A stretch of 64,000 bases of DNA, taken from IMG/VR virus record IMGVR_UViG_3300027872_000002, positions 1 to 64,000 of that record, one strand, 5' to 3'. Source of the DNA: a virus. The notes below the pieces were generated by a model. It made no database searches. It saw nothing but the letters and a program-made list of their open reading frames with translations, and was not told the origin of the DNA. Positions 3,340 to 58,197 of this stretch are shown piece by piece. The first letter of the stretch is position 1; each line of letters starts with the position of its first letter. A program made the position numbers and the translations under genes.

Positions 3340-4008
3340 ATGGAGGAGCTTGCGATCATGAAGGGCCTGTGCTACCGGCTCGATACCTCTGATGCCTTCA
3401 TCATCCGGGAGATGGGCACGTATGGGCCGTTGATCCTCGATACTGAGGATGTGGTCCTTGACGTTGGCGCCAACATCGGAGCATTTGCGGTCCTCCGGGC
3501 ACCACACTGTCGGCAGGTCATCTGTATCGAGCCAGAATCTGACAACCTGAGGGTTCTGAGGGCCAACGTCAAGACCAAGGGAGGCCCAGGTGTCCATGGG
3601 GAGCGGAGAATTGTGGAGGGTGCGGTCGTTTCCAATAGCTGGACAGAGGATGAGGTGCCCCTGTATGTCAACAGGAAGCAAGGCAAGGCCATCCACTCGC
3701 TGGAGCCAACCAAGGGCCGTGTGATCCAGATGGTCCCAGCCCTCCGATTTGAGGACATGCTGGCCTTGGCTCCGGGAGCGACAGCCCTGAAGTGCGACAT
3801 CGAGGGGTGGGAGCATTTCTTGCCGTGGAACGATCTCTTTGAGACGGAGATCCGCAAGCTGGCCATGGAGCTTCACCTCACCGGCCCAGGCCATCGAGAA
3901 TTGGCCTATGCTACGGTCATCGCCATCGAGAGGGCTGGGTTCATATCAGTAGCAAAACCGCCAGATATGAGCGCACGAGTGACCACCCTGGGATTCTGGA
4001 AACGATGA
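3340..4008 (+). CDS. FkbM-family SAM-dependent methyltransferase
   Basis: Internal ATG 3340 of ORF 3181..4008. Has the SAM-binding loop VLDVGANIGAFAV and the overall FkbM-like layout (EP...N...L..N, KCDIEGWE). Confidence 0.6.
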   Translation: MEELAIMKGLCYRLDTSDAFIIREMGTYGPLILDTEDVVLDVGANIGAFAVLRAPHCRQVICIEPESDNLRVLRANVKTKGGPGVHGERRIVEGAVVSNSWTEDEVPLYVNRKQGKAIHSLEPTKGRVIQMVPALRFEDMLALAPGATALKCDIEGWEHFLPWNDLFETEIRKLAMELHLTGPGHRELAYATVIAIERAGFISVAKPPDMSARVTTLGFWKR

Positions 4009-4361
4009 TCTATCTGACCAAGGGTGAGAGGCTCTGGATTTGGGGGCGTCGATGGGGCAAGAGCCGGGAGGACATGGCGTCAATTTACAGCGTCAGTGGA
4101 GCAACCATCTCGACTTGGTTCAAAGGGTTCGCCCACAATGACTCTGAGGTCCCAGAGGTAGCTCTCAAGGAGCCGATTCAGAAATGGGAAATGATGACGG
4201 TTGCTAGACGTAGGATGGGGCTGTCCATTCAAGCTCTCGCATCCGAGCAAGGAATCTCACACGTCACCCTCATTCGGAGGGAGAGAGGAGAAGGCAATTG
4301 GCGAGCCAGTTGGGACTGGTGGACAGGCAAGGTCCCGGCACCGATAGGAGGCAAAATATGA
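4005..4361 (+). CDS. DNA-binding protein with two helix-turn-helix-like segments
   Basis: 118-aa ORF with an ATGA overlap. Segments REDMASIYSVSGATISTWFKG and SIQALASEQGISHVTLIRRERG resemble HTH motifs. Confidence 0.5.
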   Translation: MIYLTKGERLWIWGRRWGKSREDMASIYSVSGATISTWFKGFAHNDSEVPEVALKEPIQKWEMMTVARRRMGLSIQALASEQGISHVTLIRRERGEGNWRASWDWWTGKVPAPIGGKI

Positions 4362-5838: not shown

Positions 5839-6031
5839 GGAGCGGGCAAGACGGATTGCGCAGGGTACTGATGAGCTGAAGAGGAGACAGTTGGAGGACC
5901 GGCTTGAGAAGGCTCTGGTGAGTGCGGATTGGAGGACCCTTGCTGGCGTGATTCTCGACCTGTATATGAGGCTGCTGAAGGTGGAGAGATTTGCTGCCGA
6001 TATGATCGCTGAGCTTGAAGCCAAAAAATGA
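5825..6031 (+). CDS. hypothetical coiled-coil protein
   Basis: 68-aa charged helical ORF overlapping the Nudix gene end. Confidence 0.4.
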   Translation: MKADEERARRIAQGTDELKRRQLEDRLEKALVSADWRTLAGVILDLYMRLLKVERFAADMIAELEAKK

Positions 6032-6275
6032 GTTCATTGGCGGCCCCTGGGATGGGGACGTCACCGATGCGAGCCAGCCAGAAATCAAGGTCAAGGGCAA
6101 GCATTACCCGCACCTGAAGACTTTCCAATTTGACGGCCCTGACGGGACCACCGAGCTTGGCATAATTGACCTCGACCGGCCTGAGAAACACATCGTTGGA
6201 TCCTACCACTTCCGGCTCCACCGCCGGAGCCGTCCAATGAGATTCGCCTACATCTGGGTCCCACTCGTGGACTGA
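6015..6275 (+). CDS. hypothetical protein
   Basis: 86-aa ORF with a TTG start. Last gene before the 380-bp gap. Confidence 0.35.
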   Translation: MKPKNEFIGGPWDGDVTDASQPEIKVKGKHYPHLKTFQFDGPDGTTELGIIDLDRPEKHIVGSYHFRLHRRSRPMRFAYIWVPLVD

Positions 6276-6656
6276 TATCGGTATATACGACAACCCAGAT
6301 TTTGTGATGAGAGTGATTCCTAGACCCAAGACAATATTGCCTGCCAATATCAGGCTATTCCTCTGCGTAGGTACACCGATATTGGTAGCCTATTGAATGA
6401 CGTATTGACACTCCCAGTACCAATAGGGGATGTAAGTCATTACAGGGCAGGGAGCTACCCATAAAGTACCCCCACGACAGGCCATTTTGGAAAAAAACTT
6501 TTTTGTCAAATCGACACTCGTATAACAATATGCCAATAGGTGTGGCGAGTCCTCCCGGAGACCCTTGGTTGTTTAGCGTCAAATGGGGCATGGCTATATC
6601 TCTTGTCTGACCATACGAAACCATGTGAAACAGCACCACCACCCAAAAGCAGAAAA
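6276..6656. promoter_or_regulatory. large intergenic region upstream of the packaging/structural operon, with CCAATA(G/T) boxes
   Basis: No convincing ORF. Boxes: TGCCAATAT 6342, GATATTGG 6378 (inverted), GCCTATTG 6388 (inverted), TACCAATAGGGG 6418, TGCCAATAGGT 6531. A7/T6 tract at 6491-6504. TTGTCA (6503) and TATAAC (6521) are sigma70-like hexamers, but their spacing is poor. Confidence 0.4.
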
Positions 6657-7283
6657 ATGGCCACTGTCGAGACCGGATTGGAAGGACCTGATTTGGATGC
6701 CGATCTGCCCCCAGCGGGCACCTCCATTGGCGAGTGGAGCCCAGGCGGCAAGTCATTCTATGATGGGCTGAGCGACCAGCACAAGTTGGTGGTGGATTTT
6801 TACGTCATGGATCCAAGCTCATTCATGGGTGCTTGCTTGTCGGCTGGCTACTCCAAACGCGCCATTTCTGCCATCGCCCATGAGCTCCACCACCAGCCCT
6901 CGATGGCCGCTGCCATTGCTGAGAAAATGAATGAGCGCTCAGAGCGCACGATGATCACGCAAGACCGGATCCTGCATGAGCTTGCAATCATCGCTTTCAG
7001 TGACCTGCGCAACTACACCATCGACCCCAAAACCGGCTCCATCGAGCTACCTGAGGGCGTGCCTGACTTCGTCATGCGGGCTGTGTCCTCGATCAAGTTC
7101 ATCGTCACCATCGATGAGGCCGGTCACGAGAGACGGACCCTTGAGTTCAAACTGTGGGATAAGATGGGTGCGCTCCGCATGATGGGACAGCACCTGGCCA
7201 TGTTCACCGACAAGCTCGATGTGAGGGGTGAACTCGATGTCCGGCAGAAGTGGATTATTGGCGGCAAAGAGATCGTGTTTTAG
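6657..7283 (+). CDS. terS: terminase small subunit
   Basis: Internal ATG 6657 of ORF 6540..7283. The LSDQHKLVVDFYV ... ACLSAGYSKRAISAIAHELHHQPSMAAAIAEKMNERSERTMITQDRILHELAIIAFSDLRNY pattern is typical of Terminase_2 (P27-type) small subunits. Lies upstream of terL. Confidence 0.7.
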   Translation: MATVETGLEGPDLDADLPPAGTSIGEWSPGGKSFYDGLSDQHKLVVDFYVMDPSSFMGACLSAGYSKRAISAIAHELHHQPSMAAAIAEKMNERSERTMITQDRILHELAIIAFSDLRNYTIDPKTGSIELPEGVPDFVMRAVSSIKFIVTIDEAGHERRTLEFKLWDKMGALRMMGQHLAMFTDKLDVRGELDVRQKWIIGGKEIVF

Positions 7284-7930
7284 ACAGCATTCAAATGCAG
7301 CATTCAGGCACCCAAAAATCGGGCGTGAATCGGAGGGTGAAAATGCAGCATTCAAATGCAGCAATCAGTGCAGTACAAAGCACATTGGAACACTAGTATC
7401 TAAGCCGTTTTTGCAGCATCCAGGTGCAGCATTCAGACACATGTAAATCTGGGTGCATTATCACATGTAAAATGCACTGTCCAAATGCAGCATTCAGGCA
7501 GGTGAATTTGATGGGTGCATTCACACTGGATTTGGGTGCATTCGACACTGTGCGTGCACGTCAGCTGCATTGTTGGGTGCATTCACACTGATTTTGGGGG
7601 TGAATTCAAGTGTTGCAAATGCAGCATTTCAGTGCAGTCAAATCACAGGTGCATTCAATGGGTGCATTACACATGAAAACGACAGCATTCAAATGCAGCA
7701 AATGCACTGTCTCAAAGCACATGCAATCAATGGGTGCATTACACATGTACCATCGAGGATCTAAGCCGTTTTTGGGTGCATCCAGTGCAGCATTCAAATG
7801 CAGTTGAATTCACTGTCCCAAATGCATGTAATCCCATGGGTGCATTCACATGTGCTTCGACAGCATTCAAATGCAGTCAATATCATGTCAAATGCACTGT
7901 CCAAATGGAGGTGATTTCGATGGGTGCAAT
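7284..7930. repeat. dense non-coding motif array between terS and terL
   Basis: GCATTCAAATGCAG x5 exact (7287, 7348, 7685, 7790, 7863). GGGTGCA(T/A)T x9. AAATGCACTGTCCAAATG x2 exact (7470, 7890). ATCTAAGCCGTTTTTG x2 exact (7398, 7759). Copies fall in all three frames. Confidence 0.85.
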
Positions 7931-8042
7931 TACATTGTGGATTTTGGCCGGCATTTTCATCGGGTGGAACGTCCCCCAGCCCACGTATGCACGGCTCGTG
8001 CAATCCTGGGTGGTCCGGAAGGTCAAGGGCATCGGCAAATGA
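7920..8042 (+). CDS. possible 40-aa single-pass membrane peptide
   Basis: Internal ATG 7920 of ORF 7734..8042: MGAITLWILAGIFIGWNVPQ... The start lies in the last degenerate repeat unit. Confidence 0.3.
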   Translation: MGAITLWILAGIFIGWNVPQPTYARLVQSWVVRKVKGIGK

Positions 8043-8131
8043 AGGGCTTCCTCATCGGTGTCCTCGTGACCGTGGCCCTCGTGGCCCTCGCCATATGGGG
8101 GCTGATGGTCCTCACCCAGCCGAGGATGTAG
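8039..8131 (+). CDS. possible 30-aa single-pass membrane peptide
   Basis: Internal ATG 8039 (ATGA overlap) of ORF 7850..8131: MKGFLIGVLVTVALVALAIWGLMVLTQPRM. Confidence 0.3.
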   Translation: MKGFLIGVLVTVALVALAIWGLMVLTQPRM

Positions 8132-8134
8132 CGC

Positions 8135-8359
8135 ATGGCCGTCTCGATACCCAAGGCAGGTGGGATCATCGCTACAAAGGGCACGTGGTCCCAGGACAAG
8201 AATGGCGCCTGGCTAGGCTGTCCCCATACATGTCAGATGTACACACATATTGAACTCGCCAACATTGCGGAGAGCGGAGACGTGACGCCATCATTTGATT
8301 GCCCCAACTGTGACTATGATGAACTGGTGACCTTGACTGGCTGGGTCGCACCATCATGA
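8135..8359 (+). CDS. hypothetical protein (Cys/His-containing)
   Basis: 74-aa ORF with CPHTC ... CPNCDYDE. Confidence 0.4.
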   Translation: MAVSIPKAGGIIATKGTWSQDKNGAWLGCPHTCQMYTHIELANIAESGDVTPSFDCPNCDYDELVTLTGWVAPS

Positions 8360-8565
8360 GCACATGTCGATTTGGGGCCAGCCACCAGCAAAAATCCACA
8401 ATGGAAACACAGTGAAAATCCAGGCCGAAATGGGGCTGCAAATCTGGGCCCCCCAACGATTGAAAATCAACGTAAGCGCTGCGCCTGGATGGCACGAATT
8501 TTTTCAGCCCGACCAATCCCGGTTTGCCTTTGCCCTCCGAAAATTTTTCACCATGAGTTGGGCCC

Positions 8566-8751
8566 GTGTCTGAATTGGAACTGAGACGTTGTACCCACGA
8601 GGGCTGCGACTATCCAGATCATATCGAGAACTGCCCAGATTGCTTTGGCTGGGGGTTCGTGGACGGTCGCATAATCATCGCTGCTGAAGTCGAGTCTGCG
8701 CGCAGCATGAATTGGACTCGCTGCGATGTCTGTAAGGGATCGCCAGAATGA
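8566..8751 (+). CDS. small zinc-ribbon-like protein
   Basis: 61 aa with an ATGA overlap to terL. CTHEGC ... CPDC ... CDVC. Confidence 0.45.
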   Translation: MSELELRRCTHEGCDYPDHIENCPDCFGWGFVDGRIIIAAEVESARSMNWTRCDVCKGSPE

Positions 8752-10151
8752 AAACGTCAGAGCACATCCGCAAGGCATACGAAGCCAAGATGCGGGAGCC
8801 TTCCTTCAAGGCCACGCCCAAGCAGGAGATTTTTGCTGAGGCCGTGTTCTCAGGTGAGTATCTGTACCTGGCTCTTGGCGGTGGGATCCGTGGGACCAAG
8901 ACGTGGGGCACCCTGGCGATGGTATTCTTGCTCTGTCGCATTTTTCCTGGATCTCGATGGGCGATTGTCCGCAAGGACCTTCCCACATTGAGACGGAACA
9001 CTCTCCCCTCCATCGCAAAGCTCCGGCTCACAGCGGCAGGGTTTGTCGGGGACATCAACCAATCGACTTGGAGCTATATGTGCAATAACGGTTCTGAGAT
9101 CCTCTTGTTTCCGGAGTCCATCCAGACAGACCCTGACCTCGACCGTTGGAAGGGATTGGAGGTCAATGGCTTCGTGCTTGAGGAGGCCAACGAGATGGCC
9201 GAAGCCAGCGCCAACAAGGCCATCGAGCGGGCAGGATCTTGGATCATCCCAGCGACTCCGTTCAATCCCCATCCGAAGCAGCCTCCACCATTCGTATTCT
9301 TCACTTTCAACCCGTGTGCGAATTGGCCGCGCCAGTGGTTCTATGAGCCATCGGAGAATGGGACTTTGAAGCCGCCATTTTTCTATCTCCCATCCACCGC
9401 TGCCGACAATCCGTACATACCCGATGAGGTGCGAGAGGCTTGGAAGAATCTGCCCCCAGCAGAGTATGAACGGTTCATCGAGGGCTCATGGGAGTTCACG
9501 GATGACCCTGACCAGCTGTTCAAGGCCGAATGGATCCTGGCAGCCCGTGGTTTGGAGCAGGTCATGGGGCCGGCACGACTGGGAGTGGACCCCGCACGGT
9601 TTGGGGATGATGAGACCACGTTTTGTCGTACCTCCGGCAACAGCTGGATCTCGATGACCTCGCATCCCCAACTCAAACTCGACCGGTGCGCCGATATTGC
9701 GATGGCGATGGCCCAAGACCGGCTGGACCCGATCAATGGCGAGGATATACGCATCGACACCGTGGGGCTTGGCGGTGGTGTTGCGGATATAATGACGACC
9801 AGGGGCTGGGAAATCATGGAGGTGGTGGCGGGTGCCAAACCCTGGAAACGACGGGAGTCATTCTACAAGTTCAAGAACGTGCGGAGCCAGATGTGGTGGG
9901 AGGGGGCAGAGAAGTTCCGCCAAGGTCTCTGTCCATTGCCGGATGAGGTCCCAACAAGGCTGTTCGCGGATCTCACTGCAGCACATTATAAGATAAGCGC
10001 TGACCGCACTGTTGAGATCGAGCCCAAGGACGCAATGAAGAAGCGCATTGGCCGGAGCCCTGATTGGGCCGATGCTTATCTCATGGCCATCATGGACCCA
10101 CCCGAATTGGGGCGTCCACAGAAGGTCCAATTCACCAACGTGAGGATGTAA
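8748..10151 (+). CDS. terL: terminase large subunit
   Basis: 467 aa. Walker A-like GGGIRGTKTWG, Walker B-like FVLEEANEM, C-terminal nuclease-like region (GVDPARFGDDET ... DWADAYLMA). Located just upstream of the portal gene. Confidence 0.85.
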   Translation: MKTSEHIRKAYEAKMREPSFKATPKQEIFAEAVFSGEYLYLALGGGIRGTKTWGTLAMVFLLCRIFPGSRWAIVRKDLPTLRRNTLPSIAKLRLTAAGFVGDINQSTWSYMCNNGSEILLFPESIQTDPDLDRWKGLEVNGFVLEEANEMAEASANKAIERAGSWIIPATPFNPHPKQPPPFVFFTFNPCANWPRQWFYEPSENGTLKPPFFYLPSTAADNPYIPDEVREAWKNLPPAEYERFIEGSWEFTDDPDQLFKAEWILAARGLEQVMGPARLGVDPARFGDDETTFCRTSGNSWISMTSHPQLKLDRCADIAMAMAQDRLDPINGEDIRIDTVGLGGGVADIMTTRGWEIMEVVAGAKPWKRRESFYKFKNVRSQMWWEGAEKFRQGLCPLPDEVPTRLFADLTAAHYKISADRTVEIEPKDAMKKRIGRSPDWADAYLMAIMDPPELGRPQKVQFTNVRM

Positions 10152-10154
10152 CAG

Positions 10155-11858
10155 ATGCCGCATAATGAGCAGATCGGCACGCCTGAGGAATTGAGGTCCA
10201 TCAGCGCCAACCAGCGCAAGAGTGTCACGAGCAACAAGCCCAATCTGCCCACGTATGTTCGACCGGAGTGGCTGCGATGGATGCCGGATCTCAATTTGCT
10301 CTTTCGACTCCTCGCTGGCACCCGAACGATGTGGCAACACGTCAGAGAATACATCCGCCAATGGGCCGATGAGGAAAACACGGTTTATTGGATCCGCGCA
10401 CGCAGCGAACAGCTGTTTGAAGGGCTCGGACGCACCCTCTCAGCGGCCATAGGCATGCTATTCGCCAAACCCCCAGCCGTAGTGTTCCCAGACGGTTCTG
10501 CAGCCCGTGCAGAGATGGAGCCTCATTTGGAAAACATCGATGGCGCTGGGACAAACTTCAACGTGTTCGTGAAGAGGTTCACCGAGGCCAGTTTGCGAGA
10601 TGGGGATGGCCTCATCCTCGTGGACTTCCCCACAGGGATCCTCGACCAGGAGACCGGCTTGCCCCGTGAAGTGTCCTCTGCTGAAGAGGAAGAATTGGGG
10701 CTGCGACCAACGTGGGCTCGATATGATAGGGCCAACATCCGGAACTGGCAGACCGGGAGGTTTGATAACCAAGACGTCATCACCCAAGTCAACCTGTATG
10801 AACCGCTGTTCGTCAAGGATGGCCGGTTTGGGGTCCGGTGGGAGCATCGGTGGAGGTTCCTCCACATGGCCCCAAAGCTGTCCAACCCCATTGACCCAGC
10901 GTCAACCCCAGTAGGGATCCAAGCGCAGTGGTCGCTGATCCGTCTCCTCCCGGACAAGAGTGGAGATGAGCCGGAGGACTTTCAAACGGTGGGCCAGGGC
11001 GTGTTCATGGACAAGGATGGCGGGACCTTTGACCGGCTCCCCATCTCCATCGCGTATACAGGCAAGAAGAATGCCCCCTTGGTCGCTGTCCCTCCCCTCT
11101 TGGGAGTGGCGTGGGCCAACCTGGGGCTCTGGCAAATCGCTACCAATGTCCGATTTTATCTGGACTTGGTATCGTTCCCTCAGCCCACGATTATTGGCGA
11201 CCTCAACGAGGTCTCTGGGATTGACGAGAATGGGAACCGGATCACGGTCCCTGGCAAGCTCAAAATTGGCCCCATGGTCGCTGTCCATCTGTCTGCTGGC
11301 AATGCCGACTCGCCACCAAGCTCCTATACCTTCACCACGCCCACTTCGGATGGGTTCGTGCCCAACGAAAATGCGATGCGTAGGAAGCGTGAGGACATCG
11401 CGGCCCTGGGGATGTCCTTCCTCGACCGTGACAAGCGAGCAGCGGAGACCGCAGAGGCCAAGAGGCTCGATGCCACTGCCGAGAACGCCACCCTGGCGAC
11501 CGCAGCCCAAGGGATAGATGATGCGGTGGATGGGGCCATGAAAATCCACGCTCAATATCTTGGCTTCTCCAAAGAGGAAGCTCCCAGCGTTACACTCAAC
11601 AGGGACTTCGATCAGAACATCATGGACGCCCAGATGATGGGCGCTTGGATCGCTGGAGTCGAGAAGGCTGGCTTGCCGCCACGTATCCTGCTGGAAGCTT
11701 GGCAAGCCGGTGGCCAAATCCCGGATGGCGTGGACCTCGATGAGTTGGAGCAGGAGATGCTGGCTAACCAGGCCGCCAAGGAAGCAGCTGAGCAACTGGA
11801 GCGTGAGGAGCGGATGGCCCAATTGGCACTACCACCAGGAGAGAATGAAGATGGCTAA
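10155..11858 (+). CDS. portal protein
   Basis: 567 aa, immediately after terL. Size, acidic/coiled C-terminus and gene order fit. No diagnostic motif read by eye. Confidence 0.7.
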   Translation: MPHNEQIGTPEELRSISANQRKSVTSNKPNLPTYVRPEWLRWMPDLNLLFRLLAGTRTMWQHVREYIRQWADEENTVYWIRARSEQLFEGLGRTLSAAIGMLFAKPPAVVFPDGSAARAEMEPHLENIDGAGTNFNVFVKRFTEASLRDGDGLILVDFPTGILDQETGLPREVSSAEEEELGLRPTWARYDRANIRNWQTGRFDNQDVITQVNLYEPLFVKDGRFGVRWEHRWRFLHMAPKLSNPIDPASTPVGIQAQWSLIRLLPDKSGDEPEDFQTVGQGVFMDKDGGTFDRLPISIAYTGKKNAPLVAVPPLLGVAWANLGLWQIATNVRFYLDLVSFPQPTIIGDLNEVSGIDENGNRITVPGKLKIGPMVAVHLSAGNADSPPSSYTFTTPTSDGFVPNENAMRRKREDIAALGMSFLDRDKRAAETAEAKRLDATAENATLATAAQGIDDAVDGAMKIHAQYLGFSKEEAPSVTLNRDFDQNIMDAQMMGAWIAGVEKAGLPPRILLEAWQAGGQIPDGVDLDELEQEMLANQAAKEAAEQLEREERMAQLALPPGENEDG

Positions 11859-21403: not shown

Positions 21404-23983
21404 ATGTCAGGGGTGTTTCGTAGGCGCCATTTCTGGCCGCATTTTACGCGGAGGGCAATGCTCTTCACGGCGGCTGGCAGTGCGGCGTTCAGCTCATCAG
21501 AGGTTGCTGGAATTGCCTTTGGTTCCGTCCCTGATACAATCTCTGCGTTTGAAGCTTCTGAGTCGAGTGGGATTGGCTTCGGGTCTACTCCCCTTGCGAT
21601 TGGTTCTTTCAATGCCTCGGAGTCATCTGGCATTGCCTTCGGCTCAGTTGAGTCTGTTGTCAAATCTTTACTCGCGTCTGAGACAGCAGGGATAGAATTT
21701 GGCTCTGTAGAGAATGTCACTGCGAGCCTCCAAGCTTCTGAGTCAGCAGGAATCGAGTTTGGATCTATCCCTGTTGTTGAAGGCGATTTCATTGCCACTG
21801 AATCCTCCGGGATTGGGTTTGGTAGCACGCCAGCCACTACTCTCGATGCCATTGCGTCGGAGACGGCTGGGATTGGGCTCGGGTCCACGCCAACCGCAAC
21901 CCTTGACGCCCTGGCATCGGAGTCGAGCGGAATTGAATTTGGCTCCGTTGAATCTGTGGTCCTTGTCCGTCTGGCATCGGAGACGGCTGGGATTGAATTT
22001 GGGTCTCTTGAGTCTGCTATCTTGGCAGCCATCGCATCGGAGACGGCTGGGATTGAATTTGGGTCTGCCCCTGCCACCGAAGCAGACTTCATTGCCTCAG
22101 AGTCGGCTGGGATCGCATTTGGTTCCGTAGCTCTGGCGACACCCACTGCTCTGGCCTCAGAAACTGCCGGGATTGAGTTTGGGTCGGAGGAGTCTGCGGT
22201 TGCTGCTTTCCAGGCATCGGAATCCTCTGGGATAGCGTTTGGATCCGTAGCTCTGGCGACACCGCTGGTAGGTGCCTCAGAGATCGCTGGAATTGGGTTC
22301 GGATCCGAGGAGTCTGTCACCGCACAATTCCTTGCCTCAGAGACGGCTGGGATCGCATTTGGATCCACGGCTCTCGTTGAGGGTGACTTCCTTGCCTCAG
22401 AGACGGCTGGGATTGGGTTCGGCTCAGTCGAGTCTACCAACCTTGCCGCTGAGGCTTCTGAGTCCTCCGGTATCGAGCTTGGTTCCACCCCAGACACCAC
22501 CGGGGCCTTCCAGTCATCGGAGACGGCTGGAGTCGAGTTTGGGTCTGAGGAATCTGCCACTCTGACGGCCATCGCCTCAGAGACCGCTGGGATAGGATTT
22601 GGGTCTGAGGAATCCACAATACTGGGTCAAGCCTCAGCGGAAGCAGGGATTGGGTTTGGGAGTACACCTCAGACCACCCTGATGGCCACGGCCTCAGAGA
22701 CGGCTGGGATCGCATTCGGATCCAACCCACTTGCTGAGGGAGCTTTTGAGTCCTCAGAGATCGCTGGAATCGCATTCGGATCTGTAGCACTAGCCACCCA
22801 GTTCTTTGAGGCATCGGAGACCGCTGGGATAGGATTTGGCTCAGCCGAGAATGCCGCCCTCCAAGCCATCGCCTCAGAGTCGAGTGGGATAGCGTTTGGA
22901 TCGACTCCCTTCACTGCCCTAGTTGGGACAGCATCAGAGTCCTCCGGGATAGCTCTTGGATCCGTAGCCCAAGCAACCCTCGATGCTCTTGCCTCAGAGA
23001 CGGCTGGGATCGCATTCGGCTCGATAGCGACCATCAGCAACATCCTGGCCTCAGAGTCCTCCGGGATCGGATTTGGCAGCGTTGCAGGATCTGTTCTAAC
23101 GGCTCTGGCCTCTGAAAGCGCAGGGATAGCCTTTGGCAGCGTTGAGACAGCGGAGGGAGTGTTTGCAGCATCTGCATCGTCTGGAATCGCATTCGGGTCT
23201 ATAGCCCTGGCCGTGTTCACGCCGATCACGCCGGTCCTGGTTGGAAAATATCAGCCAGAGCACGCACGTGCGCTCATCGACCTAACCAACGCCGGCACAT
23301 CGGTCATATTCACAAATGAGAATCCATCCTACACATTCAACCCAGGGATCTCTGGACTCAGCGCCACGACTGTAGACGGCAAGGCCATCGAGACATCCGG
23401 AAGGCCCTTCAGATATGAGGGCTCCACGCTGGTTGTCACGGAGGACCCAACCCTCATATTTGCACCGACTGCCTATGGGAATTTCCCAGACATCGGGGAC
23501 CACGTTATTTGGAGGGGCCTGGACCACATCGTTGCCGACATCGAGCTACTGGCACCTGATGCCGTCACGATCCTCGCCTTCATCCGAATCTCACTCCAAG
23601 ATTCTGGTGTACAATCCATACCTGGGACTGAGTTCCTCCCGGACCATGCGAGGGCTCTCACTCAAATCAAGGATGCTGGAAGGCCCGTGACATTCTTGGA
23701 AGACAATCGGGTGTACACGTTTGAGACTGGGCTGAGTACAATCTCCCAAACCGCCATCGAGGGCCATGCGATTCGCACCGGTGGAACCAAGAAGATGTAT
23801 GAGCTACTTGGCCTGGTTGAAAGAGACGCCGTGACCCTGCTCTTTGCCGGGAATACCTTTGGTGAGTTTCCCAACACGGGGATGAGGGTTGATTGGGGGA
23901 GCATTGACTACACCGTTCGTTGGACTCAGCGCATAGCTCCAGACGGTGGAACGATCATCAGCCGTGTGGTGGTATCGAGATGA
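21404..23983 (+). CDS. tandem-repeat structural protein: about 29 x 20-aa repeats plus a duplicated C-terminal domain
   Basis: 859 aa. Repeat consensus ASE[ST][AS]GI[AEG]FGS-x9. Two roughly 110-aa C-terminal paralogous modules (PEHARALIDLTNAG... and PDHARALTQIKDAG...). Confidence 0.7.
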   Translation: MSGVFRRRHFWPHFTRRAMLFTAAGSAAFSSSEVAGIAFGSVPDTISAFEASESSGIGFGSTPLAIGSFNASESSGIAFGSVESVVKSLLASETAGIEFGSVENVTASLQASESAGIEFGSIPVVEGDFIATESSGIGFGSTPATTLDAIASETAGIGLGSTPTATLDALASESSGIEFGSVESVVLVRLASETAGIEFGSLESAILAAIASETAGIEFGSAPATEADFIASESAGIAFGSVALATPTALASETAGIEFGSEESAVAAFQASESSGIAFGSVALATPLVGASEIAGIGFGSEESVTAQFLASETAGIAFGSTALVEGDFLASETAGIGFGSVESTNLAAEASESSGIELGSTPDTTGAFQSSETAGVEFGSEESATLTAIASETAGIGFGSEESTILGQASAEAGIGFGSTPQTTLMATASETAGIAFGSNPLAEGAFESSEIAGIAFGSVALATQFFEASETAGIGFGSAENAALQAIASESSGIAFGSTPFTALVGTASESSGIALGSVAQATLDALASETAGIAFGSIATISNILASESSGIGFGSVAGSVLTALASESAGIAFGSVETAEGVFAASASSGIAFGSIALAVFTPITPVLVGKYQPEHARALIDLTNAGTSVIFTNENPSYTFNPGISGLSATTVDGKAIETSGRPFRYEGSTLVVTEDPTLIFAPTAYGNFPDIGDHVIWRGLDHIVADIELLAPDAVTILAFIRISLQDSGVQSIPGTEFLPDHARALTQIKDAGRPVTFLEDNRVYTFETGLSTISQTAIEGHAIRTGGTKKMYELLGLVERDAVTLLFAGNTFGEFPNTGMRVDWGSIDYTVRWTQRIAPDGGTIISRVVVSR
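21494..23222 (+). repeat. 60-bp coding tandem repeat array (about 29 units)
   Basis: Period 60 nt (two 57-nt units). Units are diverged at the DNA level but conserved as the peptide ASExxGIxFGS. The antisense strand stays open as a compositional artefact. Confidence 0.85.
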
Positions 23984-44535: not shown

Positions 44536-44553
44536 GCTTGCTCATTCTACGTC

Positions 44554-44612
44554 TGCGGGGCCTCGTGGGGCATCCAGGGGGTCTAGGGAGCCCAGAGCAT
44601 CGAGGCCCCGCA
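44554..44612 (+). terminator. 12-bp inverted repeat after the lysis block (possible terminator or protein-binding site)
   Basis: TGCGGGGCCTCG (44554-44565) and CGAGGCCCCGCA (44601-44612) with a 35-nt loop. No clear U-tract. Confidence 0.3.
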
Positions 44613-44689
44613 TATCGTGTCTATTGGTGCCCCTCCCTATAGGCTCCCGGTTCCTGTGGTGTGATGGATTCCCGTGACGGAGATCATAG

Positions 44690-44875
44690 CACGTGCCAAT
44701 AGGTCCGGAGGAGCGAGGAGCTAGCAGGACGGAAGGGTGCTATTGGACATGATATTGGTACTCATTCTGCCAATAGGTATCGAGAGCTATTTGGACCTCA
44801 CGCAACTCCTCATTCTTCCAAAAAAATTTCCTCTCAATCTGGCTCTCGTTTAGCAATAGCACAATAGGTCCACGC
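44690..44875. promoter_or_regulatory. cluster of CCAATAGG-type boxes upstream of the replication operon
   Basis: TGCCAATAGGT at 44694 and 44768 (identical to 6531). ACAATAGGTC at 44861. Inverted copies TGCTATTGGAC at 44738 and GATATTGGTAC at 44751. A7 tract at 44820-44826. Confidence 0.45.
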
Positions 44876-44955
44876 CCCAGCCCTTTCCCCATCGAGGCCC
44901 ACCCCGTATAGTCACAGCGTCGCACCGATCTCAGAATTGAAGAATTGGAAAGTCA

Positions 44956-46398
44956 GTGTCCAGTTTCCCTTACAAAACAGATCCCTATTCTCATCAGCGA
45001 GATGCCCTCAGGTTCCTCGCCAAGCGTGGCAAATATGCTGGTCTGTTCATGGAGCAAAGGACCGGCAAGACCAAGGTCATTCTTGACGAGGCAGCATGGC
45101 GATTCTTGAAGGGAGAGATTGGCGCCCTGCTGATCCTGGCTCCCTCCGGAGTCCACACCAACTGGGTCCGTGATGAGATCCCTCTCCACCTCTCTGATGA
45201 GGTCGAGCGTGTGGTGATCGAATGGGACACAGGGAAGTCCAAAACGAAATGGTTCAGGGAGATGTTCAGAGAGGCTATGGCGACCAAAGGCAAGTTGGTC
45301 ATCCTCAGCATGAACATCGAGGTCCTGATCACAGACGGTGGCAAGAAGGCAATCAAGACTCTCATGCGATACTTCCCCACCATGATGGTCATCGATGAGA
45401 GCACCGACATCAAGACGGCTGGAGCCAAGAGAACCAGGAGCGCCAAATACCTTGGCAAGCGTGCGGTGTTCCGTCGCATCCTCTCCGGATTCCCAGACCC
45501 AGAAGGGCCACTGGACTTCTACGGTCAACTGAGCTTCCTGTCGCCTGAGATTATTGGATCGAATGTAGCGACCTTCAAGGAGAGGTATGGCCGATTTGAA
45601 CAACGCTACTATCACGGCAAGAATGCCAAGCCGGTTCAAGTCCTAGTTGGGTACAAGAACCTCCCGGAGCTAACCAAAATTGTCGCCCAACATTGCTTCC
45701 GTGTCCGGAGAGATCAGGTGTTTGATCTGCCTGACAAAATCTACCAGAAACGATACTTTGATTTGTCACCGGAACAGAACCGAATGTATGCCGAGCTTGA
45801 GACCGATTGGCTCACCAACTACATCGAGGATGATGCTGAGGTGAGCGCACCCTTGACCATCGTTCGGCTCCTCCGGCTCCAACAGATTGCGTCTGGCTAT
45901 GTCCCCACTGATTCCGGGGAGGAACCAAACCGGCGGATTGCTGGGCCCAACCCTCGACTCAAAGCTCTGACCGATGCGGTCTCCAGGGTTGATGGACAGA
46001 TCATCATTTGGTATCGCTACCGGATGGACGGAGACCTGTTGGAAGAGACCCTTGGCGACGATGTTGTGAGGTGGGATGGCACGACCAAAAAGACCAGGGA
46101 GGAAGGCAAGGTCAAATTCATTCAGGGCAAGGCTCGATTCTTCATAGGATCCCCAAAGGCTGCTGGCCGCGGATTGACCCTCAAGATGGCCCAAGCCTCA
46201 CTCTACTTCTCTCACTACTGGAGCCTGGAAGCAAGAGTCCAATCTGAGGATCGTGCGGTGGGCGAGAAGGACTGGCCACCGCTGTATATTGACATCATGG
46301 GAAAGGACACAGTGGATGAAAGGATCATTGATGCCCTCCGCGCCAAGGATGACTTGGCTCGCCTAGTGTTAGGAGACCCAGCAAGGAAGTGGATATAA
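44956..46398 (+). CDS. SNF2-family (SF2) helicase/ATPase
   Basis: 480 aa with a GTG start. Motif I EQRTGKTKV, motif II VIDESTDIK, and a helicase C region GSPKAAGRGLTL ... QSEDR. Confidence 0.8.
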   Translation: MSSFPYKTDPYSHQRDALRFLAKRGKYAGLFMEQRTGKTKVILDEAAWRFLKGEIGALLILAPSGVHTNWVRDEIPLHLSDEVERVVIEWDTGKSKTKWFREMFREAMATKGKLVILSMNIEVLITDGGKKAIKTLMRYFPTMMVIDESTDIKTAGAKRTRSAKYLGKRAVFRRILSGFPDPEGPLDFYGQLSFLSPEIIGSNVATFKERYGRFEQRYYHGKNAKPVQVLVGYKNLPELTKIVAQHCFRVRRDQVFDLPDKIYQKRYFDLSPEQNRMYAELETDWLTNYIEDDAEVSAPLTIVRLLRLQQIASGYVPTDSGEEPNRRIAGPNPRLKALTDAVSRVDGQIIIWYRYRMDGDLLEETLGDDVVRWDGTTKKTREEGKVKFIQGKARFFIGSPKAAGRGLTLKMAQASLYFSHYWSLEARVQSEDRAVGEKDWPPLYIDIMGKDTVDERIIDALRAKDDLARLVLGDPARKWI

Positions 46399-46800
46399 AT
46401 GAGCAAAGTGTATGTCGTTCAGGACCCTATGATCATGCGGGATGGCCGCAAGGAACGCAGGTTCAGTTTGGCCCCTGCTGAAGAATATGGAGAGTTGGTT
46501 TTTCTGCTGGGCTGGAATGATACAAGGGGATTGGGAGTCAAGCCTGGCGCAGAGCGCAGATTGTACCGGACACTCCGGTATAACCTGCGTGAGTTCAATG
46601 ACTCGGACTATCTGTTGATGACCGGGAATTGGACGGCTATGGCGATGGCCGTCGTGTGTGCTCTGGAGCATACTCGTGGCTTCGTGAGTTGCCTCCAGTG
46701 GGATCAGGAGGATCGTGAGTACAGGGTCATCGCAATTGATGTCAACCTCGATGACGATGACGAGAATTGGACACCAGAATTGGAGAATGAAGATGAGTGA
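46399..46800 (+). CDS. hypothetical protein
   Basis: 133 aa with a TAAATG junction and an acidic C-terminus. Confidence 0.5.
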   Translation: MSKVYVVQDPMIMRDGRKERRFSLAPAEEYGELVFLLGWNDTRGLGVKPGAERRLYRTLRYNLREFNDSDYLLMTGNWTAMAMAVVCALEHTRGFVSCLQWDQEDREYRVIAIDVNLDDDDENWTPELENEDE

Positions 46801-47314
46801 TCTAACCAACTTGGTCGCGCTGGCCGAGGAGATGGTCAAGCTTGAGTATGCAATCGCAGATATTGACGACCAAAGGAAGGCCCTGGCGGGTCTGTACAGG
46901 GCTATCGAGGAGAGTGACCTACCAGAAGCTATGGAAGCGGCAGGGGTTGCGGACTTCACCATGAAGGACGGGAGGAAGGTCACGACCAAAACCCGCACCC
47001 ACACTCACATTTCCGAGGACCACCAAGAGGGAGCTTTTGAATGGCTCCGGGTCAACGGCCATGATGATATCATCAAGCGCATGATCTCTGTGAGCTTTGG
47101 GAAAGGAGAGGACAAGAAAGCTGAGGCCCTGTATGCCTTGCTCGTCAAGCGAAAGGGCCTGTCCGATAACTCGATTGTAGGCAAGCAATCCGTTCACGCT
47201 TCAACCCTCAAGTCATTCGTGACTAAGGCACTCGCTGCGGGCGAGGAGATCCCGCACGACCTCTTTGGAATTCACCAGGTCCCAATCGCAGTTATTGGGT
47301 CGGTGAAGAAGTAG
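46793..47314 (+). CDS. hypothetical protein (possibly recombination/replication associated)
   Basis: Internal ATG 46793 of ORF 46715..47314. N-terminal coiled coil. Sits next to the SSB-like gene. Confidence 0.45.
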   Translation: MSDLTNLVALAEEMVKLEYAIADIDDQRKALAGLYRAIEESDLPEAMEAAGVADFTMKDGRKVTTKTRTHTHISEDHQEGAFEWLRVNGHDDIIKRMISVSFGKGEDKKAEALYALLVKRKGLSDNSIVGKQSVHASTLKSFVTKALAAGEEIPHDLFGIHQVPIAVIGSVKK

Positions 47315-47378
47315 GGTCTTGACGGGAGCCGGACCCATTAAACCAGGCCCCCAATAATTCGATTGGAGCAAGAGTATC

Positions 47379-48236
47379 ATGGCAACGAAAAAAGGAAAGG
47401 CAGTAGCAAAGAAGGAAGGCCAGACTGGCTTGGCACTCTCAGAGTATGGCGAGGATGCTGGGGCAGGGTTTGAAGACGTCACGCAAGCAGACCTTATCAT
47501 TCCATTCCTGAACGTCATGCAGAAGATGTCTGACTTGGTTGATGAGGAGCACCCGTCTCATGTGACGGGAGCCAAGGCTGGGATGCTGATGAACTCGGTG
47601 ACCGAGGAGCTTCATCCTGGCCAAGAAGGGATCCTGTTCATCCCAGTCCATAAGACCCATAAGTTTGTCGAGTGGGTCCCACGGGATCAGGGTGGCGGAT
47701 TTGTGGGGGTCTATGAGGTCTCAGACCCAATGGTCATGGAGGCTCGCAAGGGCCATGAGTTTGGGAGGGTTGAGAGCCCAGACGGCAATGACCTCGTGGA
47801 GACCTTCTACATGTTCGGTCTGGTGGTGGACGTTGATGGGGGATACAATCCAGCCGTCATCGCATTCGCCAGCACCCAGATCAAATCCTACAAGAAATGG
47901 ATGACGACGATGAGGTCAGTCCAGCTTGAGGATCCGGAGACGGGCAGAAGGATCACACCTCCAATGTTCTCGCATCTTTTCAGGGTGCGCACGAGGCATC
48001 AGGAGAACGCCAAGGGCTCGTGGCATGGGCTCAATATCACATTCGCCAAAGAGGGAGATCCCAAGGAAGGCGTGAGCCCTGCTGTGGCCTCCCGGATCAG
48101 CGTGGATGATGAACTCTACCAAGCGGCAAAAGAGTGCCGCAGTATCGTGGTTGAGGAGGGTGCCAAGGTCTCCTATGAGACTTCCGGCAAGGGTGGAGAG
48201 GGTGGAGATGGAGACGGTGGGGATGACGATTTTTAG
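47379..48236 (+). CDS. single-stranded DNA-binding protein, T7 gp2.5-like (tentative)
   Basis: 285 aa. The C-terminus GGEGGDGDGGDDDF is an acidic tail ending in an aromatic residue, as in gp2.5/SSB proteins. Located in the replication module. Confidence 0.45.
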   Translation: MATKKGKAVAKKEGQTGLALSEYGEDAGAGFEDVTQADLIIPFLNVMQKMSDLVDEEHPSHVTGAKAGMLMNSVTEELHPGQEGILFIPVHKTHKFVEWVPRDQGGGFVGVYEVSDPMVMEARKGHEFGRVESPDGNDLVETFYMFGLVVDVDGGYNPAVIAFASTQIKSYKKWMTTMRSVQLEDPETGRRITPPMFSHLFRVRTRHQENAKGSWHGLNITFAKEGDPKEGVSPAVASRISVDDELYQAAKECRSIVVEEGAKVSYETSGKGGEGGDGDGGDDDF

Positions 48237-48326
48237 GTAGCATGTAGCCCCCCAGACGTGCCCCCTTCCGGCATCACGTAAGCCAGGAGGGGGCGTGACT
48301 CCTCACTCTCTGAGAACGAAGGCAAA

Positions 48327-49877
48327 ATGTCTGAACTGGCTGAGCGATTTTTTGCTCGCTTCCGAGGATTGGATCGTGCGTTTGGTCTGTACGGATTGAA
48401 AGGAAAAGCCAAGAAGGGCCAGAAGCATCTTGGATCCGCCCAGACCTATCGAGAGGCCCCGCATGCGGGCCTCTGGCACGACCACTTGGAGGGCAAAACT
48501 ACTCTTGGAATAGTCCCCATCTGTGATGATGGTACAGCTTGGTTTGGCGCCATTGATATTGACGTGTATGATGGGCTCGACCACAAGGCCATTGCTGAGC
48601 AGATCCTCGCCTGGGACCTTCCGTTGATCGCTTGCCGGACCAAATCCGGAGGGCTCCATCTGTACCTGTTTTGTCGCGACTCGATACCGGCAGAATTGAT
48701 CCGTGGCAAGCTCATGGAGTGGAGTGTCCAGCTTGGCTTCTCCGGAGTCGAGGTGTTCCCCAAGCAGACCCGATTGGCCAACACCTCAGACGTTGGCAAT
48801 TGGATCAACATGCCCTACTTCGGTTGCGAGACTGCCACAGGGAAGGACAAGGGCAAGGGAGACCGCTATGCCATCTTCAACGGCAAGGCTCTGACGGCTG
48901 AAGCATTCCTCAAACTTGCCGAGACAATTGCGGTTGATACAGATAGTCTCAGGTCTGTGGCTGTCCCAACTGATGACCCATCCCAAGGACTCCTCCGGGA
49001 GGGCCCACCGTGCCTCCAAACTCTCCACCAACGTGGCGGGATCCGGGAGGGTGGAAGGAACAATGGACTCTTCAACATCGGAGTCTATCTGAGGAAGCGA
49101 TTTGGCCAAGGAGAATGGGAGGCCCACTTGGATGAATACAACCAGGCTCTCCTTGATCCTCCGTTGGGCCATAAGGAAGTCTTGCAGATTGTCAAATCCG
49201 TCAATCGCAAGGCGTATGAATACAAGTGCGCAGACCAACCAATCTGTGACGTTTGTAATCGCCAGATCTGCCTGTCCCGTGAGTTTGGTATCGCCACCGG
49301 GGAGGGAGACCCTGGTGTGACGTTTGGGCAACTGATCAAGGTGGAGACGGATCCCGTGACTTGGATCTGGGATGTGGACGGGGCACGCATCGAGCTAACC
49401 ACCCAGGAGTTGAAAGACCAAGCTCGATTCCACACGAGAGCTATGGAGGAATTGAACAAGTGGCCGTTGGCGGTCAAGGCTCCGGACTGGGCCAAGATCG
49501 TTCGGCAATATTTGGAGTCCGTCGAGATCATGACGGTTCCGGAGGATGCCAAAATGACGGGCCAGGTCATGTTCTTCTTGGAGTTGTATTGTACACGAGA
49601 GACCCGTGCCCTCAACCGCGATGATCTACTGAAGAAGAAACCATGGACCGACGATGGCCGTGTCTACTTCCATGGACCAGACTTCCGCCAGTTCTTGGCC
49701 AAGCAAGGTCTCCGGATGAGGCCTGGGGATCTTTGGAATCAACTCAGGGAGAGAGGCGCTGAGCCGCAGTTCTTCAACATCAAGGGCCAAGGGATCAACG
49801 TCTGGAGCCTCCCAGCCTTCAAGGAGCAGGATGAGGCGTTTGACGTTCCCATGATCGAGAGCCAAGGAGAGATGTAA
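48327..49877 (+). CDS. primase-polymerase (archaeo-eukaryotic primase superfamily) with a C-terminal extension
   Basis: 516 aa. AEP motif I AIDIDVYD, motif II KSGGLHLYLF, then a PriCT-like PPCLQTL...GGRNNGLFNIGVYL. Confidence 0.6.
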   Translation: MSELAERFFARFRGLDRAFGLYGLKGKAKKGQKHLGSAQTYREAPHAGLWHDHLEGKTTLGIVPICDDGTAWFGAIDIDVYDGLDHKAIAEQILAWDLPLIACRTKSGGLHLYLFCRDSIPAELIRGKLMEWSVQLGFSGVEVFPKQTRLANTSDVGNWINMPYFGCETATGKDKGKGDRYAIFNGKALTAEAFLKLAETIAVDTDSLRSVAVPTDDPSQGLLREGPPCLQTLHQRGGIREGGRNNGLFNIGVYLRKRFGQGEWEAHLDEYNQALLDPPLGHKEVLQIVKSVNRKAYEYKCADQPICDVCNRQICLSREFGIATGEGDPGVTFGQLIKVETDPVTWIWDVDGARIELTTQELKDQARFHTRAMEELNKWPLAVKAPDWAKIVRQYLESVEIMTVPEDAKMTGQVMFFLELYCTRETRALNRDDLLKKKPWTDDGRVYFHGPDFRQFLAKQGLRMRPGDLWNQLRERGAEPQFFNIKGQGINVWSLPAFKEQDEAFDVPMIESQGEM

Positions 49878-50135
49878 ATGAAGCTGGAGCATTGGGAGAC
49901 ACAACGCTACAAGATCAGCCTCAAGCCGGGAGTGGATGGCCGACTGGCCGATGTCCGTGGCATTGTGGTACATGACGTGATTGGCGTCCACATGGACCCA
50001 GAAAGTAGGTGCCTCTGCTTGACGGAACTGGCGTCAGGAAAGAGGTTCCAAAATACATACTTTGATCTGCTTGTGGCGGTTGAGGAAGCTCAGCGACTCG
50101 CAACGGAGGGATGGCCAAAACATGAGGTGGAGTAG
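49878..50135 (+). CDS. hypothetical protein
   Basis: 85 aa with a TAAATG junction. Confidence 0.45.
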   Translation: MKLEHWETQRYKISLKPGVDGRLADVRGIVVHDVIGVHMDPESRCLCLTELASGKRFQNTYFDLLVAVEEAQRLATEGWPKHEVE

Positions 50136-51393: not shown

Positions 51394-51620
51394 CTGGAGA
51401 AGTAAAGATCATCCAAGGAGAGGATCCGTGGGACACCAAGGTTTGGTTGAACGGCCATGAGCTACAAGGGCTCTGTGCTCTCCAGGTCAACATCGAGGCC
51501 CAGGAGCTACCAACCATCACCTTCACCATTGAGCCGGCAATGATCGAGTTTGAGGGACTCGTGGAATTGAAGCGAGTGTTTGAAAAGCCAGTGGTTCCTA
51601 TCGAGGACCTGGCGCCATAG
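51390..51620 (+). CDS. hypothetical protein
   Basis: Internal ATG 51390 (ATGA overlap) of ORF 51339..51620. Confidence 0.4.
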   Translation: MTGEVKIIQGEDPWDTKVWLNGHELQGLCALQVNIEAQELPTITFTIEPAMIEFEGLVELKRVFEKPVVPIEDLAP

Positions 51621-51635
51621 AATTGGAGAACCAAG

Positions 51636-53635: not shown

Positions 53636-53692
53636 CCCTTTCCAACTGGGCCTCCGCAACGTATGTTTGTCTGACGCCAAAGAATTGGAGAA

Positions 53693-58196: not shown

Positions 58197-58197
58197 T

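Follow-up and report, generated by a model that had tools for sequence, protein, structure and literature searches.

What role, if any, does a block of densely repeated DNA play in the middle of a phage packaging module? The question is raised by a 64,000-nucleotide stretch of an uncultivated siphovirus (IMG/VR record IMGVR_UViG_3300027872_000002, positions 1 to 64,000; here called the window), in which the genes for the small and the large terminase, terS (6657..7283, + strand) and terL (8748..10151, + strand), are separated by 1,464 bp that begin with an array of short repeated boxes (7284..7919, + strand; 636 bp). An initial annotation of this DNA had proposed that the array is a packaging-recognition (pac) site. 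We find that the array is non-coding, without a conserved reading frame, and that its recurring TGCA and GGGTGCA cores share one face of the DNA helix. Judged from its sequence, it appears to be a cis-acting, stereospecific docking platform on double-stranded DNA, the putative binder being a multi-subunit protein; among the candidates for that protein, we tentatively favor the phage's own TerS.

A non-coding array phased on the DNA helix

The array is not an assembly artifact, because three independent assemblies are 100% identical over positions 6000 to 9000, array included. The idea that the array itself causes assembly breaks was rejected: its longest exact internal repeats measure only about 18 nt, and low coverage or microdiversity explains the contig breaks better. 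Starting one base past the terS stop codon, it surpasses all other non-coding stretches of the window in length and all other stretches in repeat density, within a genome that is otherwise tightly packed and coded on one strand, and its GC content is 43 to 47%, against about 56% for the window. The measured length agrees with the initial annotation, which had described an array of about 640 bp directly 3' of terS. The array does not, as had been claimed, make up most of the terS-terL gap; it accounts for only 43% of the 1,464 bp, the rest being four small genes (7920-8042, 8042-8131, 8135-8359, and 8566-8751) and a spacer (8360-8565).

Four kinds of boxes, all on the + strand and in a single orientation, make up the array; motif counts were taken over 647 bp (7284-7930). 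Box A (CAGCATTCAAATGCAG, also written GCATTCAAATGC; 7285..7300 in the first copy) has the imperfect palindrome GCATT-CA-AATGC as its core, in keeping with the GCATT-N2-AATGC core recognized in the initial annotation. Exact copies start at 7285, 7346, 7683, 7788, and 7861 and degenerate copies at 7414 and 7622; a search with the 16-mer CAGCATTCAAATGCAG at up to 3 mismatches returned these seven matches, all in the array, and none of 100 shuffled controls gave seven. Box B, (A/T)TGGGTGCA(T/A)T (7451..7459; also written ATGGGTGCATT or (A/T)TGGGTGCATT...), recurs at 7451, 7513, 7534, 7575, 7660, 7732, 7774, 7838, and 7922. Box C (AAATGCACTGTCCAAATG; 7470..7487) is present in exact form at 7470 and 7890 and in degenerate form near 7700 and 7808, and box D (ATCTAAGCCGTTTTTG, also CTAAGCCGTTT; 7398..7413) has copies at 7398 and 7759. 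Within the window, boxes A, C, and D are found only in the array. The core of box B, the 8-mer ATGGGTGC, is present seven times in the window when either strand is searched, always between 6825 and 7920; two of these copies lie inside the terS coding sequence (6825 and 7164, as codons M-G-A) and five in the array.

The longer motifs of the initial annotation were all recovered where it had placed them, namely, five exact copies of GCATTCAAATGCAG (7287, 7348, 7685, 7790, and 7863, with none elsewhere in the 64 kb), two of AAATGCACTGTCCAAATG, and two of ATCTAAGCCGTTTTTG at a distance of 361 bp. Two of its counts needed adjustment. There are nine copies of GGGTGCA in the array, at the positions it had listed, and one elsewhere in the window, but only eight of the nine match GGGTGCA[TA]T, the copy at 7774 reading GGGTGCATC. 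The strong excess of GCATT(C/A) also stands, but the reported figure of about 18 is the count of GCATT; GCATT[CA] occurs 16 times in the 647 bp, and its 24 occurrences in the remaining 63 kb predict only about 0.25 for a stretch of this size. The common denominator of the boxes is the half-site TGCATT, which is present in both orientations (18 GCATT and 12 AATGC). The boxes are combined into about 8 to 9 composite units, each of which opens with box A and most of which close with box B, with box C between them in some units. Nested duplications with periods of 13, 21, ~62, and ~361 bp run through the array; Tandem Repeats Finder (TRF) reports a 21-bp period with 4.2 copies at 7512-7598, and the ~361-bp super-units, with one box D each, bear out the higher-order duplication of about 360 bp that had been noted before.

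The spacing of the boxes is as regular as their sequence. The array holds 31 TGCA cores, and when periods from 5 to 40 bp were scanned, the strongest periodicity of these cores was at 10.48 bp (power 9.6; P ~0.008 versus random positions over the full range and P ~0.001 in the prespecified window of 10.3 to 10.7 bp). Successive B boxes are separated by 62, 21, 41, 85, 72, 42, 64, and 84 bp, and none of the eight gaps deviates by more than 0.14 turn from a multiple of 10.5 bp (P ~4e-5). The periodicity is carried by the specific boxes (GCA, TGC, and GGG); generic nucleosome-like bendability was rejected, since the AAA/TTT and CA/TG signals are at control level.

The claim that the constraint acts on DNA and not on protein was upheld. 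No gene is called within the array in five assemblies, the open reading frames (ORFs) are not conserved, the spacing is kept in whole turns, and the repeated 14-mers do indeed occupy all three frames (7287, 7348, and 7685 are 0, 1, and 2 modulo 3). These results bear on the proposal that the array acts as a structured or sponge RNA in the late operon or through the small ORFs 7228-7446, 7570-7764, and 7610-7807, which we consider extremely unlikely. The array, which sits within a co-directional operon, is likely to be transcribed, three B boxes are preceded by Shine-Dalgarno-like AGGTG sequences, and one relative carries a tmRNA gene in the same slot. In L222, one of two relatives with an orthologous array (L222 and L223), the 65-aa ORF 7610-7807 has kept its length, but two of its internal patches are in another frame, and the ORF is split in L223; L222 also has a 175-aa ORF, open in a different frame, that is not present in the window. 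Searches of Rfam at the gathering threshold gave no matches, and ARAGORN found no genes in the window. Folding of the array gave a z-score of -3.4, but RNA structure was rejected as the cause because the score is equal on both strands, as inverted half-sites would give. The candidate hairpin GACAGCATT...AATGCACTGTC is lost in L222, and spacing steps of 10.5 to 11 bp have no rationale for RNA or codons.

Three further identities were tried and set aside. The ~61-bp period suggested a CRISPR-like mini-array, but the copies are only 62 to 77% alike over 39 nt, the "spacers" carry the same boxes, and no cas genes were seen. Box B does not fit a DnaA box, as its conserved part is, by eye, GGGTGCATT and not a 9-mer DnaA box. 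Box D is, by eye, a poor match to the IHF consensus of E. coli.

Relatives of the array and the probable source of its boxes

The orthologous arrays of L222 and L223 were found through a protein search with g40, the 40-aa product of the gene that follows the array, and both contigs begin within the array. Their terL genes are 90.6% (L222) and ~81% (L223) identical to that of the window at the nucleotide level. Between the window and L222, the array differs by 38 substitutions in 593 nt and by six single-base gaps that form three compensating +1/-1 pairs, and 7 of 7 B-B intervals as well as the 361-bp D-D interval are exactly as in the window. In L223 the sole net length change is -11 bp, one helical turn. 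The TGCA cores are phased in both orthologs, at 10.48 bp (power 10.0) in L222 and 10.44 bp (power 7.2) in L223.

Boxes B and D have not changed in either ortholog: there are no changes in their 132 aligned nt, versus 74 in the 747 nt of the rest of the array (Fisher P=4.7e-6), and in L223 motif positions diverge by 7.5% versus 19% for non-motif positions (P=0.004). Overall, the array has diverged by 6.4%, whereas four-fold sites of terL have diverged by 27%; the figure for four-fold sites of the adjacent genes g40 and g74 is about 5 to 6%, so the low overall divergence of the array may reflect recent shared ancestry and not constraint. Because the region may share such ancestry, we set overall divergence aside and use only contrasts within the array as evidence for constraint. 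On these contrasts, selection acts on the sequence of the boxes and on their whole-turn spacing.

A second array occupies this site in L140 (L137 represents the same phage), whose TerS is 75% identical to that of the window. It measures 450 bp, follows terS directly, and has a super-unit of ~213 bp. Its abundant words (GGGGCCTC and GGATCC) differ from those of the window array, and only box D and GACAG are common to both, with CTAAGCCGTT(T) occurring four times at spacings of 63, 149, and 63 bp. The box D match extends over 16 of 18 nt (P ~0.002), and among the fetched loci the box D 10-mer occurs only inside arrays. GACAG and CCTAAG of L140 are phased at 10.56 bp (power 8.9 of a possible 10), for a set picked after about 10 motif sets. 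Beyond its array, in place of g40, g29, and g74, L140 has at 1517-1660 a 47-aa ORF (38 aa from an internal ATG) whose product is extremely basic (...KAERQKNRGKGKSGGRKAGPKREPRRPARRRRR).

Comparison of the terS-terL spacer in related phages, put forward by the initial annotation as a check, gave a divided answer, with orthologous arrays in L222 and L223 but none in L139, L136, L224, and L225. In L139, L224, and L136 the terS stop codon overlaps the start of a 29-aa gene, and in L225 terS leads directly into a g40 homolog with a different N terminus (MTTIAFW...). The array is thus optional and dispensable. Other cargo is found at this site in more distant relatives, including a 239-aa gene in L220, a zinc-ribbon gene in L132, and a tmRNA gene behind a terminator in L233. 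In the last of these (1224-1718; TerS 69% identical), a GC-rich hairpin with a run of T follows terS, and the tmRNA gene, called by ARAGORN with the tag AEFDIAPAVEPEMEYLQAA*, extends to the contig end; this may be a phage-borne tmRNA or a prophage/ssrA junction.

Such variability raises the possibility that the array is a non-functional or selfish amplification, in which a copy of spacer DNA was tandemly duplicated in a recombination-prone cargo slot by slippage or unequal recombination and has not yet decayed. The nested 13-, 21-, ~62-, and ~361-bp duplications would fit this, as would presence or absence of the array among near-identical phages and a divergence (0.064) close to that of four-fold sites in g40 and g74 (0.05 to 0.06), so that recent ancestry may explain the conservation. 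We nevertheless judge it distinctly unlikely: substitutions avoid boxes B and D, whole-turn spacing is kept between paralogous units as well as between orthologs, box D and ~10.5-bp phasing recur in the otherwise different array that L140 has at this site, and the genome is otherwise densely packed.

The boxes themselves have a probable source. A conserved non-coding spacer directly upstream of terL (8360..8565, + strand; alignment A5) is common to all close relatives and holds what may be called a master copy of the boxes. Where relatives have no array, this spacer contains CGACAGCATT (A-like), AAATCATGGGTG(G/C) (B-like), GAAATCGGGCC repeats, and the near-invariant TGGGCCCCCCAACGATTGAAAATCA; the window's own copy has more degenerate A and B boxes than these relatives have. 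The left end of the array (7291-7333) is colinear with the spacer of L224 (score 28 versus a shuffle maximum of 27), and the same alignment gave P ~0.02 for L001 and L136. The distance from CAGCAT to GGGTGC is 61 bp both in the L001 spacer and in the last unit of the array. We infer from these similarities that boxes A and B were copied from the conserved element upstream of terL, and we regard 8360-8565 as a candidate essential cis element, either pac or a late regulatory site. The spacer also carries repeated GAAAT(C/G)GGGC boxes, and a related ATGGTGGGCCC box stands right after terS in the distant L132.

At its right end the array runs into g40 (7920..8042, + strand), which has both its ribosome-binding site (RBS) and its start codon within the final B unit; the start codon comes from the last GGGTGCA box (ATG GGT GCA...) and is preceded by a GGAGGTG RBS. 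The most parsimonious history would thus start with the arrival of a copy of the master element at the terS/g40 junction, continue with its amplification, and end with the capture of the g40 start codon by the amplified element. Derivation of the array from the 5' end of g40 was rejected because L225 has g40 without an array and with a different N terminus, and because the boxes trace to the spacer upstream of terL. The copying and amplification of a cis recognition element within a phage genome, with whole-turn spacing kept, has rarely been documented.

TerS and other candidate readers of the array

Profile matches support the identities that had been given to both terminase genes. terS encodes a true small terminase of the SF6/SPP1 G1P type with an N-terminal helix-turn-helix (HTH) (PF03592, E=2.8e-21; phrog_51), with structure matches to PDB 3ZQP (SF6 small terminase; E=3e-8) and to the DNA-binding-domain entries 4ZC3 and 2CMP; terL is a true large terminase gene (phrog_2, E=2.3e-31) and is followed by the portal gene. 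The head module includes a DUF4055 portal and an SPP1 gp7/Mu-F-like head protein, and by analogy this SPP1-like head and portal module suggests headful packaging.

We put the probability that the array is an accessory pac-like site bound by TerS at roughly 40%; it is the most economical reading. TerS is the economical candidate because the boxes are unique to the terS-terL module and because an SPP1-like head and portal module is present. It is also so because, in SF6-type TerS rings, adjacent HTHs lie about one B-DNA turn apart and wrapping of the DNA is the favored model (PMC4737164), and because SPP1 TerS binds two repeat-bearing regions on either side of the cut, the family binding direct-repeat boxes (PMC6316719). 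A multi-subunit protein would contact successive helical turns of the array; the ring of the phage's own SF6-type TerS is the candidate reader, and the DNA may wrap around several rings. The array would then be an accessory, high-avidity extension of the packaging-recognition region, of which relatives would keep a single master copy, and it would raise the odds that packaging starts on this genome, yet would not be needed for viability. If TerS does read the array, it would be a natural substrate for multi-ring wrapping and would open a direct test of DNA recognition by ring-shaped small terminases. For such a test in the SF6/SPP1 family, the boxes, the master copy, and natural array-minus controls have now been identified.

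The window shares several features with the pac sites of SPP1 and SF6 (pacL-pacC-pacR, bound by G1P). The adjacent TerS, with its N-terminal HTH, belongs to the same family (Terminase_2, PF03592; 3ZQP), several sets of short direct repeats adjoin terS, and the phased array fits an HTH ring with about one turn between HTHs and with wrapped DNA (PMC4737164). The signal is also unique in the genome, with one degenerate master copy at 8360-8565: ATGGGTGC is confined to 6825-7920, which makes the signal specific to this region, as expected of pac.

Several observations weigh against TerS binding or against a role in packaging. The phasing is motif specific only, the AAA/TTT and CA/TG periodicities in the array not exceeding those of control windows. 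Among the ~85 loci whose sites downstream of terS were surveyed, an array follows terS in only two lineages, the other being that of L140, and the L140 array has no significant similarity to that phage's own spacer upstream of terL (P=0.18). Accessory cargo accumulates in the slot after terS, which is a general hot spot, so the array could be unrelated to packaging. At 636 bp, the array is several times the length of every characterized pac site known to us. The array is also missing where TerS is most similar (93% identity in L139, 89% in L225, 88% in L224, and 87% in L136). It is present in L222 and L223. The putative recognition-helix region of L136 is nearly identical to that of the window (AISSIAHELHHK against AISAIAHELHHQ). 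SPP1/SF6 pac overlaps promoters, the RBS, and the 5' end of terS (PMC6316719), whereas the window array lies downstream of the terS stop codon; it further differs in having ~30 half-sites over 636 bp, in being dispensable in close relatives, and in lacking sequence similarity to SPP1 pac.

The array is therefore not the minimal or essential pac site, since L139, L136, L224, and L225 have none. Of the original pac hypothesis, the adjacent SF6/SPP1-type TerS and the phased array acting at the DNA level stand, but a minimal pac does not, given the absence of the array from the closest relatives. Because two features that define the SPP1 pac family, position and conservation, were tested and differ here, we do not file the array in that family; by analogy, we describe it as one that works like an expanded pac or an iteron-type nucleoprotein platform.

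Packaging sites of other phages offer partial parallels. P1 pac consists of clusters of TGATCA/G hexamers that flank the cut and are gated by Dam methylation, with 7 hexamers in ~160 bp inside pacA. It resembles the array in having many very short words with a 4-bp palindrome (GATC in P1 and TGCA in the array) and two clusters, as the array has super-units; an IHF site, possibly architectural, lies between the P1 clusters, and box D in the array is only an analogy to it. Lambda cosB, which acts in a cos mechanism, comprises R1-R3 and the IHF site I1 next to Nu1, with the three R sites upstream of Nu1. Like the array, it has multiple sites beside the small-terminase gene (TerS bound in lambda) and an unrelated site interspersed among them, but the TerS family (Nu1) is different and the mechanism is cos, not pac. 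We also speculate, with little confidence, that the array is a "packaging-drive" element, whose amplified terminase-recognition boxes would let the genome that bears them outcompete array-less relatives for terminase in coinfection; this would explain why it is optional and polymorphic among near-identical phages, yet constrained in its boxes and phase. As an extension of this speculation, the boxes have come to include TGCA, which is purged from the remainder of the genome, and their recognition could thus depend on TGCA methylation by the host, much as that of P1 pac depends on Dam. The amplification suggests competition among related phages for packaging or for a regulator.

A regulator is the reader in another explanation, possible though unlikely, in which boxes A and B are sites for a phage or host regulator that acts on the late genes from the spacer upstream of terL, and the array is a bank of cooperative operators, a roadblock, or a sink that tunes read-through from terS into g40 and on to terL. 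The imperfect palindrome of box A is of the type bound by dimeric regulators, the boxes are present in the conserved non-coding region directly 5' of terL, and a weak Xre-type HTH protein is encoded at 4005-4361. Helical phasing is typical of cooperative repressor binding. Other operator-like CCAATAGG clusters stand at two operon starts, as described below, and in SPP1 the pac element doubles as a regulatory site, with TerS repressing its own promoter (PMC6316719). On the other hand, ~30 half-sites in 636 bp are far beyond the needs of known operators, and the array is not accompanied by a regulator gene. A single sigma-70-like promoter was predicted in the array (7857-7886) and was rejected, being destroyed in both L222 and L223, and 8360-8565 has no promoter-like site, which is a weak objection because the host promoter type may differ.

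The first of the CCAATAGG clusters is in the non-coding region upstream of terS (6276..6656, + strand), outside the array, where CCAATAGG/CCTATTGG boxes are clustered. In an alignment of the window with L136, L139, and L140, column identity over this region is 76%, and the cluster 5' of terS is kept down to 51% TerS identity. A second CCAATAGG/CCTATTGG cluster lies at 44536-44955, 5' of the helicase/replication module, and the two regions also share an A7/T6...CTCGT(A/T)TA(A/G)CAATA block. Both are probably operon-start regulatory regions; because the same clusters precede the replication module, the region upstream of terS looks regulatory and not unique.

The TGCA content of the array suggests yet another reader. 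Outside the array, no tetranucleotide of the window is as depleted as TGCA (63 observed versus ~199 expected; observed/expected ratio [O/E] 0.32), and GTGCAC is absent where 18 copies are expected. The depletion extends to all relatives (O/E 0 to 0.47 in L001-L004, L132, L136, L139, L140, L141, L220, L224, and L225) and is not seen in unrelated viral contigs. It points to a constraint from the host, through restriction or methylation, or to a signature constraint. Against this background, the 31 TGCA packed into 636 bp of an accessory element in a hypervariable cargo slot might be a decoy that titrates a host factor, such as a defense sensor, a nucleoid protein, or a TGCA-specific restriction-modification enzyme. 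Models for such titration exist in datA, which titrates DnaA, and in P1 incA, which titrates RepA, but we are aware of no virulent phage that carries a decoy array of DNA. L224 and L225 have no TGCA and the L140 array has almost none; the homologous boxes of array-less relatives lack it as well, so that the enrichment is a derived feature of the window array. The TGCA of the array may thus have a function or may simply have been carried along with the founder unit when it was amplified, and we regard a decoy as improbable.

Iteron arrays at the origins of plasmids and phages and related titration loci, such as P1 oriR/incA and those of R6K, F, and E. coli datA, provide the last comparison; extra arrays of this kind, placed apart from the essential copy, can titrate. 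They resemble the window array in their ~21-bp (two-turn) direct repeats on one face of the helix and in a presence or copy number that varies between relatives. An iteron-type replication origin, a copy-control locus, or a partition centromere would accord with the 21-bp tandem core at 7512-7598, whose period falls in the ~17- to 22-bp range of phased repeats, with the placement of all sites on one helical face, and with a GC content below that of the flanks. We consider it very unlikely, however. The array sits in the packaging module, its neighbors (terS, g40, g29, and g74) include no initiator or par gene, and the replication module lies ~37 kb away (44956-61481), preceded by a conserved region of its own. 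GC skew shows no inflection, the cumulative skew rising monotonically across the window, and no A+T-rich block is evident, the lowest GC content over 300 bp being 0.43. The closest relatives lack the array, and it has no similarity to plasmids in PLSDB. Our statements on gene content rest on 50 of the ~89 ORFs of the window; genes for lysogeny or plasmid maintenance were not found among these, nor were the companions of a partition centromere of the parS, parC, or sopC kind (parA, parB/parR, or a plasmid-prophage lifestyle).

Should the binder turn out not to be TerS, the locus would still be a new type of accessory, non-coding cargo acting at the DNA level in a phage hot spot.

Neighboring genes and phage context

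The interval between terS and terL is a mosaic of optional small genes. The first of these, g40, encodes a 40-aa single-pass membrane-type protein; it is found in the window, L222, L223, L225, L003, and L004 and not in L139, L136, and L224, and of the relatives that have it, L225, L003, and L004 lack any array. Compared with L222, it is free of indels, and the changes are mostly synonymous. It is followed on the same (+) strand by g29 (8042..8131), which encodes a small membrane protein, and g74 (8135..8359), which encodes a zinc-ribbon-like protein, both conserved in relatives. Beyond the spacer, g61 (8566..8751, + strand) is a 61-aa CxxC zinc-finger ORF and represents an indel, present in the window and L222 and not in L224 and L001.

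The genes match those of a virulent siphovirus that supplies its own replisome. The phage encodes a DNA polymerase, a primase, and helicases (44956-61481) as well as a 1,307-aa tape-measure protein, and no genes for lysogeny, partition, RNA polymerase, or methyltransferase were found among the 50 ORFs scanned. It has no cultured relative, as the nearest isolated phages by terL tblastn are only 23 to 31% identical in TerL. A distant-mode blastn search with the array and with 6500-10200 matched none of 50,697 phage records and no PLSDB plasmid, and we found no description of a comparable array in the literature. Exact scans of IMG/VR returned only single chance matches for the 14-mer and none for the 18-mer.

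A scan of IMG/VR for paired D boxes gave five matches, about the level expected by chance, in unrelated contexts: three iteron-like arrays (L226, L227, and L229) and two coding sequences. In L227 (2450-2660), tandem 12-mers (GGTTACCTTCTT), broken up by CTAAGCCGTTTTTTTGG, lie in a 328-aa ORF between helicase and primase genes; they resemble origin iterons inside an initiator gene, and the box D match is probably due to chance. When GTDB genomes were scanned with a terL profile, the only relative to emerge was the distant L231, a 14.7-kb contig in a metagenome-assembled genome of the Gemmatimonadaceae, with a TerL that is 52% identical over its N-terminal half. Its binning is at best a weak hint of the host and not a reliable host call. 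Second to the array in repeat density within the window is 21500-23300 in the ORF at 21404-23983, a coding repeat in an 859-aa protein of the structural module, whose recurring 8-mers include CGGCTGGG and GCCTCAGA.

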